This document shows, in pieces, positions 1,532 through 2,710 of a DNA stretch of 64,000 nucleotides. Source of the stretch: Escherichia coli (GTDB lineage: Bacteria; Pseudomonadota; Gammaproteobacteria; Enterobacterales; Enterobacteriaceae); assembly GCF_009931435.1 (NCBI RefSeq), contig NZ_CP043414.1; one strand, given 5' to 3'. The notes beneath the pieces are model-generated. The model saw only the letters and a list, made by a program, of their open reading frames with translations, searched no databases and had not been told where the DNA came from. The position numbers and the translations under genes were made by a program. Each line of letters opens with the position of its first letter. Within the stretch, counting starts at the first letter, position 1.

Positions 1532-2710
1532 ATGACTGCTGTAAGCCAAACCGAAACACGATCTTCTGCCAATTTTTCGCTTTTCCGCATCGCTTTTGCG
1601 GTTTTTCTCACCTACATGACCGTAGGGTTACCATTGCCGGTTATCCCGCTGTTTGTTCATCATGAGCTGGGCTATGGCAACACTATGGTCGGGATTGCCG
1701 TCGGCATTCAGTTTTTGGCTACGGTGCTGACGCGTGGCTATGCCGGGCGACTGGCCGATCAATATGGTGCAAAACGTTCGGCGCTTCAGGGGATGTTAGC
1801 TTGTGGTCTGGCGGGGGGCGCACTGCTGTTGGCGGCGATTTTGCCCATCTCCGCACCGTTCAAATTTGCTCTGTTGGTCGTCGGACGTTTGATTCTTGGC
1901 TTTGGTGAAAGCCAGTTACTGACGGGCGCTCTGACCTGGGGATTGGGCATCGTTGGGCCAAAACATTCCGGCAAAGTGATGTCATGGAACGGAATGGCGA
2001 TTTACGGTGCCCTCGCTGTTGGTGCGCCGCTTGGCCTGTTGATTCATAGCCATTACGGTTTTGCTGCCCTGGCGCTCACCACAATGGCATTACCCATACT
2101 GGCGTGGGCCTGTAACGGCACAGTGCGCAAAGTACCGGCCCTGGCGGGAGAACGTCCATCGCTGTGGAGCGTTGTCGGGCTTATCTGGAAACCAGGGTTA
2201 GGTCTGGCGCTACAAGGTGTTGGTTTTGCGGTTATCGGAACTTTCGTTTCGCTCTACTTTGCCAGCAAAGGATGGGCGATGGCGGGCTTTACTCTTACCG
2301 CGTTTGGCGGGGCATTTGTCGTGATGCGCGTAATGTTTGGCTGGATGCCGGACCGTTTTGGCGGCGTGAAAGTGGCGATCGTCTCTCTGCTTGTAGAAAC
2401 AGTGGGCTTGTTGCTGCTCTGGCAGGCGCCAGGTGCGTGGGTCGCATTAGCGGGCGCGGCCTTAACCGGAGCTGGATGTTCGCTTATCTTTCCAGCGCTG
2501 GGCGTGGAGGTGGTTAAACGTGTACCGTCACAAGTTCGTGGCACCGCACTGGGCGGATACGCCGCGTTTCAGGATATCGCCCTCGGCGTCTCCGGGCCGC
2601 TGGCGGGAATGCTGGCGACCACGTTTGGTTACTCATCGGTATTTCTTGCCGGGGCGATCTCTGCGGTGCTGGGAATTATTGTCACGATACTGTCGTTTCG
2701 TCGGGGTTAA
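1532..2710 (+). CDS. yfcJ: MFS-family membrane transporter
   Basis: 392-aa ORF, highly hydrophobic with multiple predicted TM segments; position between fabB and flk. Confidence 0.8.

Follow-up and report, generated by a model that had tools for sequence, protein, structure and literature searches.

Minimal tail-to-tail overlap of the convergent genes yfcJ and flk in Escherichia coli: common stops, lineage history and a flk transcript that ends inside yfcJ

Introduction

The convergent genes yfcJ and flk of Escherichia coli end within the same 4 bp, which raises the question of whether such a junction couples the expression of the two genes or is simply tolerated. Flk restrains the premature secretion of late substrates, and cells that lack only flk are almost normally motile (PMC13344023); the orphan MFS protein YfcJ has been linked to bo3 oxidase activity and to arabinose efflux (PMC10588857, PMC3429515). 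A sequence-only reading of the region had noted the overlap and proposed that it leaves no room for terminators, so that each transcript must read into the other gene, with potential antisense interference between them. We studied the junction in a window, i.e., the whole stretch of 64,000 nucleotides under analysis, to which all coordinates refer unless another sequence is named. With a probability of roughly 0.7, we read it as an overlap of the YTAR class that arose by the loss of a spacer and was fixed by the stops common to both genes, and in which read-through is a tolerated by-product with a weak regulatory effect at most.

Two genuine coding sequences end in the same 4 bp

Positions 2700-2711 read gtcggggTTAAc, from which the geometry follows directly: the coding sequences overlap by 4 bp (2707-2710), and their stop codons overlap on the central TA (2708-2709) of the palindrome GTTAAC (Table 1). 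The same 4-bp overlap is found in the RefSeq annotation of the closest genome and in that of K-12 MG1655 (flk at 2437950-2438945 on the plus strand, yfcJ at 2438942-2440120 on the minus strand), and 5422 of the 5426 complete E. coli genomes searched carry the 2.5-kb stretch that holds the locus, at 95-99.6% identity. That yfcJ (plus strand) and flk (minus strand) end in the same 4 bp, as had been claimed, is thus borne out by the sequence, the ORFs and the RefSeq annotation. The junction is a minimal (4-nt, YTAR) tail-to-tail overlap of two genuine coding sequences.

The overlap would be an artefact if one of the two stops had been mis-called, a possibility raised together with the original claim, and we looked at this with family profiles and alignments of the C-termini. 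The product of flk matches the NCBIfam Flk equivalog with 507 bits (residues 2-330 against positions 1-338 of the 339 in the model), and its homologues carry the name Flk. YfcJ matches an NCBIfam model of the "arabinose transporter" type from end to end (1-392/392). The C-termini (...WLVx and the stop in Flk, ...FR[RK]x and the stop in YfcJ) keep their position in the genera where a spacer separates the two genes, and Flk stops at the same residue position across the sampled loci. We found nothing in favour of a mis-called stop, and since both ORFs reach these stops in the sequence and the full-length models agree with the C-termini of the spacer-bearing genera, both stops hold and there is practically no chance that the overlap is an annotation artefact.

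Table 1. Features of the yfcJ/flk junction, in window coordinates.
Feature	Position	Strand	Description	Basis
yfcJ CDS	1532..2710	+	392-aa MFS transporter; stop TAA at 2708-2710	ORF list, RefSeq annotation, Pfam MFS_1, NCBIfam PRK12382 (1-392/392)
Hairpin CCGCATCGCTTTTGCGG, then TTTTT	1585..1609	+	54-78 nt into the yfcJ ORF	Terminator-like scan
flk 3' UTR	2534..2706	-	Antisense to the last 58 yfcJ codons	K-12 terminus mapped (TRS Supplementary Data 3 and 4, PMC10687069)
Stem-loop at the measured flk 3' end	2537..2566	-	K-12 CGCGGCGUAACCGCCCAGUGCGGUGCCGCG; no U tract	
TTAA tetramer common to both CDSs	2707..2710	both	YTAR class	Sequence
flk CDS	2707..3702	-	331-aa flagella biosynthesis regulator Flk; stop TAA is the complement of 2707-2709	ORF list, RefSeq
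Codons of the hydrophobic C-terminal membrane anchor of Flk	2713..2763	-	Ends one codon ahead of the common stop	Translation and alignment
11-bp hairpin GGACGCGUUGC/GCAACGUGUCC	2765..2794	+ (yfcJ-sense)	55-84 nt past the yfcJ stop, inside flk codons; no U tract	Fold

The overlap is of an ordinary class

The genetic code by itself makes this geometry the shortest one available. Stops facing each other cannot overlap by 1-3 nt, as no suffix of TAA, TAG or TGA equals a prefix of TTA, CTA or TCA, and the shortest convergent overlap is therefore one of 4 nt with the form YTAR, in which TGA is excluded. [quoted passage not shown] They counted 58 such overlaps in E. coli and 1890 in 58 genomes, of which 1218 are of at least 5 nt (their Tables 2 and 3), which leaves about a third in the 4-nt class. 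The junction of yfcJ and flk has the same geometry as these, with facing 3' ends that are true protein ends and with TAA/TAG stops on opposite strands that have the central TA in common. It differs from them in nothing of kind, and what is added here is the history of the pair in its lineage. In the closest genome, the other three convergent pairs of the 50-kb stretch matching the window have spacers of 32-58 bp. As a class, the overlap is not above chance; it is of a known kind, and the flk-yfcJ pair is already in a published catalogue of overlapping transcripts.

The junction has a lineage history

To describe this history, we took one genome per species, located flk by scanning with the Flk alignment, and walked both frames to their stops, which resulted in 80 loci. 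The identical 4-nt geometry was found in 25 of them: all Escherichia (including E. albertii, E. whittamii and the cryptic clades), almost all Citrobacter, Salmonella enterica arizonae/diarizonae, and Intestinirhabdus. A spacer of 24-343 nt separates the genes in 20 loci (Enterobacter, Lelliottia, Cedecea, Buttiauxella, Raoultella/Klebsiella and others), 0.6-2.3 kb lie between them in 16, and yfcJ is absent from the fetched flank in the remaining 19. Nearly all the short spacers fold into a GC-rich hairpin or a REP-like palindrome, e.g., GCCACCC...GGGTGGC in Buttiauxella and AACGGCGGCC...GCCGCCGTT in a Klebsiella MAG. Since U-rich tails follow these hairpins in some of the spacers only, we call them terminator-like and not terminators. 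From this distribution, the ancestral state was probably a spacer, which the group formed by Escherichia, Salmonella and Citrobacter would have lost at its base. This polarity is inferred without a tree, and the spacers of different genera show no visible homology that would support it.

The overlap has been retained since the split between Escherichia and Salmonella. If the central TA were substituted, both genes would lose their stop together: YfcJ would be longer by 50 residues, and Flk would gain 25 behind its C-terminal membrane anchor. The conservation of the tetramer is thus explained by the use of the central TA in both stops and needs no special cause. The outer Y and R positions are free and have toggled repeatedly among the overlap loci, where we found TTAA 12 times, TTAG 6 times, CTAA 5 times and CTAG twice.

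The 4-nt arrangement has also been broken. In Citrobacter amalonaticus S646, an insert of 2.3 kb (positions 4038-6326 of locus L016) lies exactly between flk and yfcJ; it encodes a PTS EIIC-like protein (minus strand) and a GntR-like regulator (plus strand), whose gene ends 4 nt from the yfcJ stop. This two-gene insert shows that the arrangement is dispensable. Inserts of 1.6-2.3 kb between flk and yfcJ were also seen in Kosakonia, Phytobacter, Superficieibacter and one Buttiauxella. In Pseudenterobacter timonensis, the 340-nt spacer (positions 4006-4345 of locus L035) is a tandem array of about four units of some 84 nt, each with a REP-like palindrome joined to a repeat of the final ~30 nt of flk (…CTGGTTGCGTGA), so that the 3' end of flk has been duplicated together with the REP.

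The flk mRNA ends inside yfcJ

If no DNA lies between the genes, transcripts have to end inside the partner gene, and for flk such an end has been mapped in K-12. The TRS study (PMC10687069) reports a "distant primary" 3' terminus of flk at MG1655 2439118, 173-174 nt past the stop and inside yfcJ, and no terminus in the first 100 nt past the stop. In the same data, the density of read starts is 0.11-0.16 in the flk 3' UTR vs 0.12-0.16 in the coding sequence, i.e., the signal does not drop at the stop. The terminus maps to window position 2534, just after a stem-loop (Table 1) that is predicted at -27.1 kcal/mol in K-12 vs -21.7 kcal/mol in the window, where two synonymous differences result in a different fold.

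Past its stop, the flk mRNA strand is C-rich and G-poor, with C/G ratios of 1.0-2.1 (78-nt windows over 500 nt); the yfcJ mRNA strand lacks this bias, with ratios of 0.6-1.6 past the stop. The composition of the flk extension fits termination by Rho followed by exonuclease trimming, and the flk 3' end may be formed in this way. It resembles the Rho-dependent ends trimmed back to a stem-loop described by Dar and Sorek (NAR 2018, PMC6061677) in having a stem-loop free of a U tract and an untranslated stretch rich in C and poor in G. It differs from them in that its Rho dependence is read from composition: the Rho table of Adams et al. 2021, in which low expression may hide the site, does not have the flk 3' end in its bicyclomycin-sensitive regions. 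The Term-seq data of the latter study list no 3' end for flk, and none at MG1655 2438600-2439199.

A transcription start taken from Thomason 2015 is given as a "nearby TSS" in Supplementary Data 4 of the TRS study, at MG1655 2439030 (+), which corresponds to window position ~2622 on the minus strand. It lies inside yfcJ, 85 nt past the flk stop and 88 nt ahead of the flk 3' terminus, and a short antisense RNA within the 3' end of yfcJ is thus possible. By eye, we found no convincing -10 or -35 element for this start.

Terminators and the transcript of yfcJ

A scan for the consensus of intrinsic terminators past either stop gave nothing convincing: there was one weak plus-strand site at 2758-2774, and the totals were not clearly above those of shuffled sequences. 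The folds of the whole 3' regions were not exceptional on either strand (z -1.6 and -0.8). We found no terminator-like site at a conserved position inside either gene in E. coli, E. albertii, Salmonella arizonae and Citrobacter portucalensis. The scan and the three other species thus speak against a canonical intrinsic or bidirectional terminator embedded in the partner gene. Known RNA families give no further candidate, since the four Rfam hits above the gathering threshold in the whole window all lie away from position 2707.

Overlapping bidirectional terminators are reportedly found between convergent genes. The junction resembles these systems (Ju et al. 2019; Wang et al. 2022, bioRxiv 10.1101/2022.10.23.513370) in that convergent genes have transcripts ending in each other's territory, and in that a stem-loop in the nascent RNA is proposed to position the end. 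However, a GC-rich hairpin with an A tract upstream and a U tract downstream is lacking between yfcJ and flk, where there is no intergenic DNA to hold it, and expression is probably too low for programmed collisions of multiple polymerases. The closest element with such flanking tracts lies at 1340-1367 and is the terminator of fabB (GGGAACC-CGAT-GGTTCCC between AAAAA and TTTTT). It is a textbook bidirectional terminator and the first that read-through from flk would meet. In the region that follows fabB (1290-1367, plus strand), this strong hairpin is preceded by a REP-like palindrome (GGTCGGATAAGACGCGTCAGCGTCGCATCCGAC).

For yfcJ, neither the TRS study (PMC10687069) nor Adams et al. 2021 lists a 3' end. 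The latter report in their supplementary file 2 a bicyclomycin-sensitive region with its peak at 2440043(-) and a Rho score of 5.8, where read counts drop from 236 to 15 without bicyclomycin and from 266 to 98 in its presence. Since the end of fabB falls within the upstream counting window, the size of this drop has to be read with care. The peak maps to window position 1609, at the hairpin and T-run of Table 1, 78 nt inside the yfcJ ORF. This Rho region near the 5' end of yfcJ probably limits the transcription that reaches the overlap in rich medium, and the hairpin and the Rho region may represent premature termination or attenuation.

RNA structure past the two stops

Where would the yfcJ mRNA end? 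The best candidate for its 3'-end stem-loop is, from the predicted folds, the 11-bp hairpin at 2765-2794. Of 169 windows of 60 nt along the antisense strand of flk, the one located 40-100 nt past the yfcJ stop gives the most stable fold, and the region of the hairpin has a z of -3.2, with none of 120 synonymous recodings as stable. The hairpin is broken in one close Escherichia strain, and its register differs in other genera. A second pairing was seen on the yfcJ-sense strand at 2795-2860, ~100-145 nt past the yfcJ stop (AAAGGGATTGA / TCAATCCCTTT). It spans the flk codons for KGID to LNPF, and is strong in E. albertii and in the cryptic Escherichia clades and weaker in E. coli.

We then compared the folds past the stops with those of 120 synonymous recodings of the last 50 codons of the partner gene, in the 25 overlap genomes and the 20 spacer genomes. 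On the yfcJ mRNA strand, the median z is -1.73 in overlap genomes vs -0.55 in spacer genomes (one-sided Mann-Whitney p 0.0096, uncorrected); on the flk mRNA strand, it is -0.63 vs +0.59 (p 9e-5, same test, uncorrected). The species are not independent, and most of the signal is due to Escherichia, Salmonella and a part of the Citrobacter loci; in about half of the Citrobacter loci, z is near 0. The higher stability past the stops of overlap genomes hints at selection on the read-through RNAs and counts against the view of read-through as a by-product. We regard this excess of structure as a weak hint, i.e., a new lead only.

Such selection could take the form of compensatory dual coding: after loss of the hairpin between the genes, selection would have acted on synonymous sites within the final ~50 codons of flk and of yfcJ, favouring stem-loops that set or protect the 3' end of the mRNA from the partner gene, so that a terminator-like function would have moved into coding sequence. 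The top-ranked fold just past the yfcJ stop and the excess of structure on both strands of overlap genomes favour this explanation, as do the position of the measured flk 3' end at a stem-loop and the G.U wobbles of the yfcJ-sense strand, which by inspection become C.A mismatches on the flk-sense strand. However, the comparison is weakened by the kinship of the species and by the Citrobacter loci with z near 0, hairpin registers vary by genus, single changes break hairpins within Escherichia, the copy at the flk end is weakened in the window, and no hairpin has a U tract. On balance, we consider dual coding unlikely.

Does the overlap regulate the two genes?

The second way in which the overlap could matter is by interference. 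Sanmartin et al. (NAR 2025, PMC12288877) list flk-yfcJ among 165 convergent excludons, observed in at least half of 58 MG1655 RNA-seq samples, and report that excludon pairs in general show higher synteny. The claim that the overlap leaves no room for terminators and makes read-through obligatory is logically true, is confirmed by measurement for flk, and agrees with this listing; the antisense interference deduced from it is a possibility only. Like the other excludons, flk-yfcJ has overlapping 3' transcription and a very short intergenic distance, which is negative here. It stands apart from them in that the coding sequences themselves overlap, whereas the mean intergenic distance of the set is 95 nt. 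Published data, with the flk side measured, thus place the pair among convergent excludons by transcript overlap; an excludon is defined by mutually exclusive expression, through interference or RNase III, which for flk-yfcJ is at most a possibility. The literature that we searched holds no gene-specific evidence for reciprocal expression of flk and yfcJ. Neither gene is in the supplements of the p19 dsRNA-capture work, a method that captures few 3'-UTR duplexes.

The read density of flk is about ten-fold lower than that of fabB in the TRS data (PMC10687069), and that of yfcJ is lower still. Both genes are weakly expressed. Polymerases cross a few hundred nucleotides in seconds, and weak promoters fire rarely. 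With weak promoters and such fast crossing, collisions and duplexes should be infrequent. Together with the Rho region near the 5' end of yfcJ, this weak expression suggests that the regulatory effect of the overlap is probably small.

A functional excludon, in which transcription of flk and of yfcJ lower each other by polymerase collision or by duplexes cut by RNase III, would make the expression of the flagellar export checkpoint protein and that of the transporter reciprocal. It is supported by the RNA-seq listing, by the about 174 nt of yfcJ that the flk mRNA covers in antisense at full level, and by the conservation of the arrangement across three genera together with the raised synteny of excludon pairs. 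Yet neither gene appears in the dsRNA supplements (a method weak for 3' UTRs), the weak expression of both should make collisions and duplexes rare, no functional tie is known between Flk and YfcJ, inserted genes split the junction in a Citrobacter strain and in several genera, and selection on the two stops fully explains why the tetramer is conserved. We therefore doubt that the pair works as an excludon. The combined scenario, in which synonymous sites were selected as terminator substitutes after the ancestor of Escherichia, Salmonella and Citrobacter had lost the hairpin, with an antisense overlap of at least 170 nt coupling the expression of Flk and YfcJ, is very improbable.

A model for the junction and its practical meaning

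The reading that we prefer, spacer loss followed by fixation through common stops, would unfold as follows. A hairpin-bearing spacer would have been lost in the lineage of Escherichia, Salmonella and Citrobacter, after which the common central TA would lock the geometry while the outer Y and R positions drift. With no terminator between the genes or conserved inside them, the 3' UTR of each mRNA would be antisense to the 3' coding region of the other gene. For flk this is shown by the end mapped in K-12, at a stem-loop that lacks a U tract and lies about 174 nt inside yfcJ; Rho and trimming would form this end, and the yfcJ mRNA would perhaps end at the 11-bp hairpin 55-84 nt inside flk. The overlap would be tolerated, both promoters being weak and Rho presumably stopping most yfcJ transcription near the 5' end in rich medium.

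The junction opens no new kind of biology and its value is mainly practical. Cassettes and deletions in either gene can alter the 3' end of the partner or drive strong antisense transcription across it, and phenotypes assigned to a single gene thus need a check by complementation. The ΔyfcJ::kan allele used to link yfcJ to bo3 oxidase activity (PMC10588857) is an example of such a cassette. The pair could also serve as a clean and conserved case for studying the regulatory costs and benefits of minimal tail-to-tail overlaps and the formation of 3' ends where there is no intergenic terminator, with related genera providing natural controls of the "spacer" and "insert" kinds.

Other RNA elements in the window

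Two further observations concern regions of the window away from the junction. On the plus strand at 10678-10930, three tandem matches to the Rfam family naRNA4 (RF02564; 79-81 bits) lie about 91 nt apart; the array corresponds to the gap between dedD and cvpA in the aligned closest genome, and resembles a repeat array of the REP/BIME type. In the region of the nuo operon, the plus strand at 41690-41732 matches the Rfam nuoG RNA motif (RF01748) with 50.3 bits, vs a gathering score of 33.
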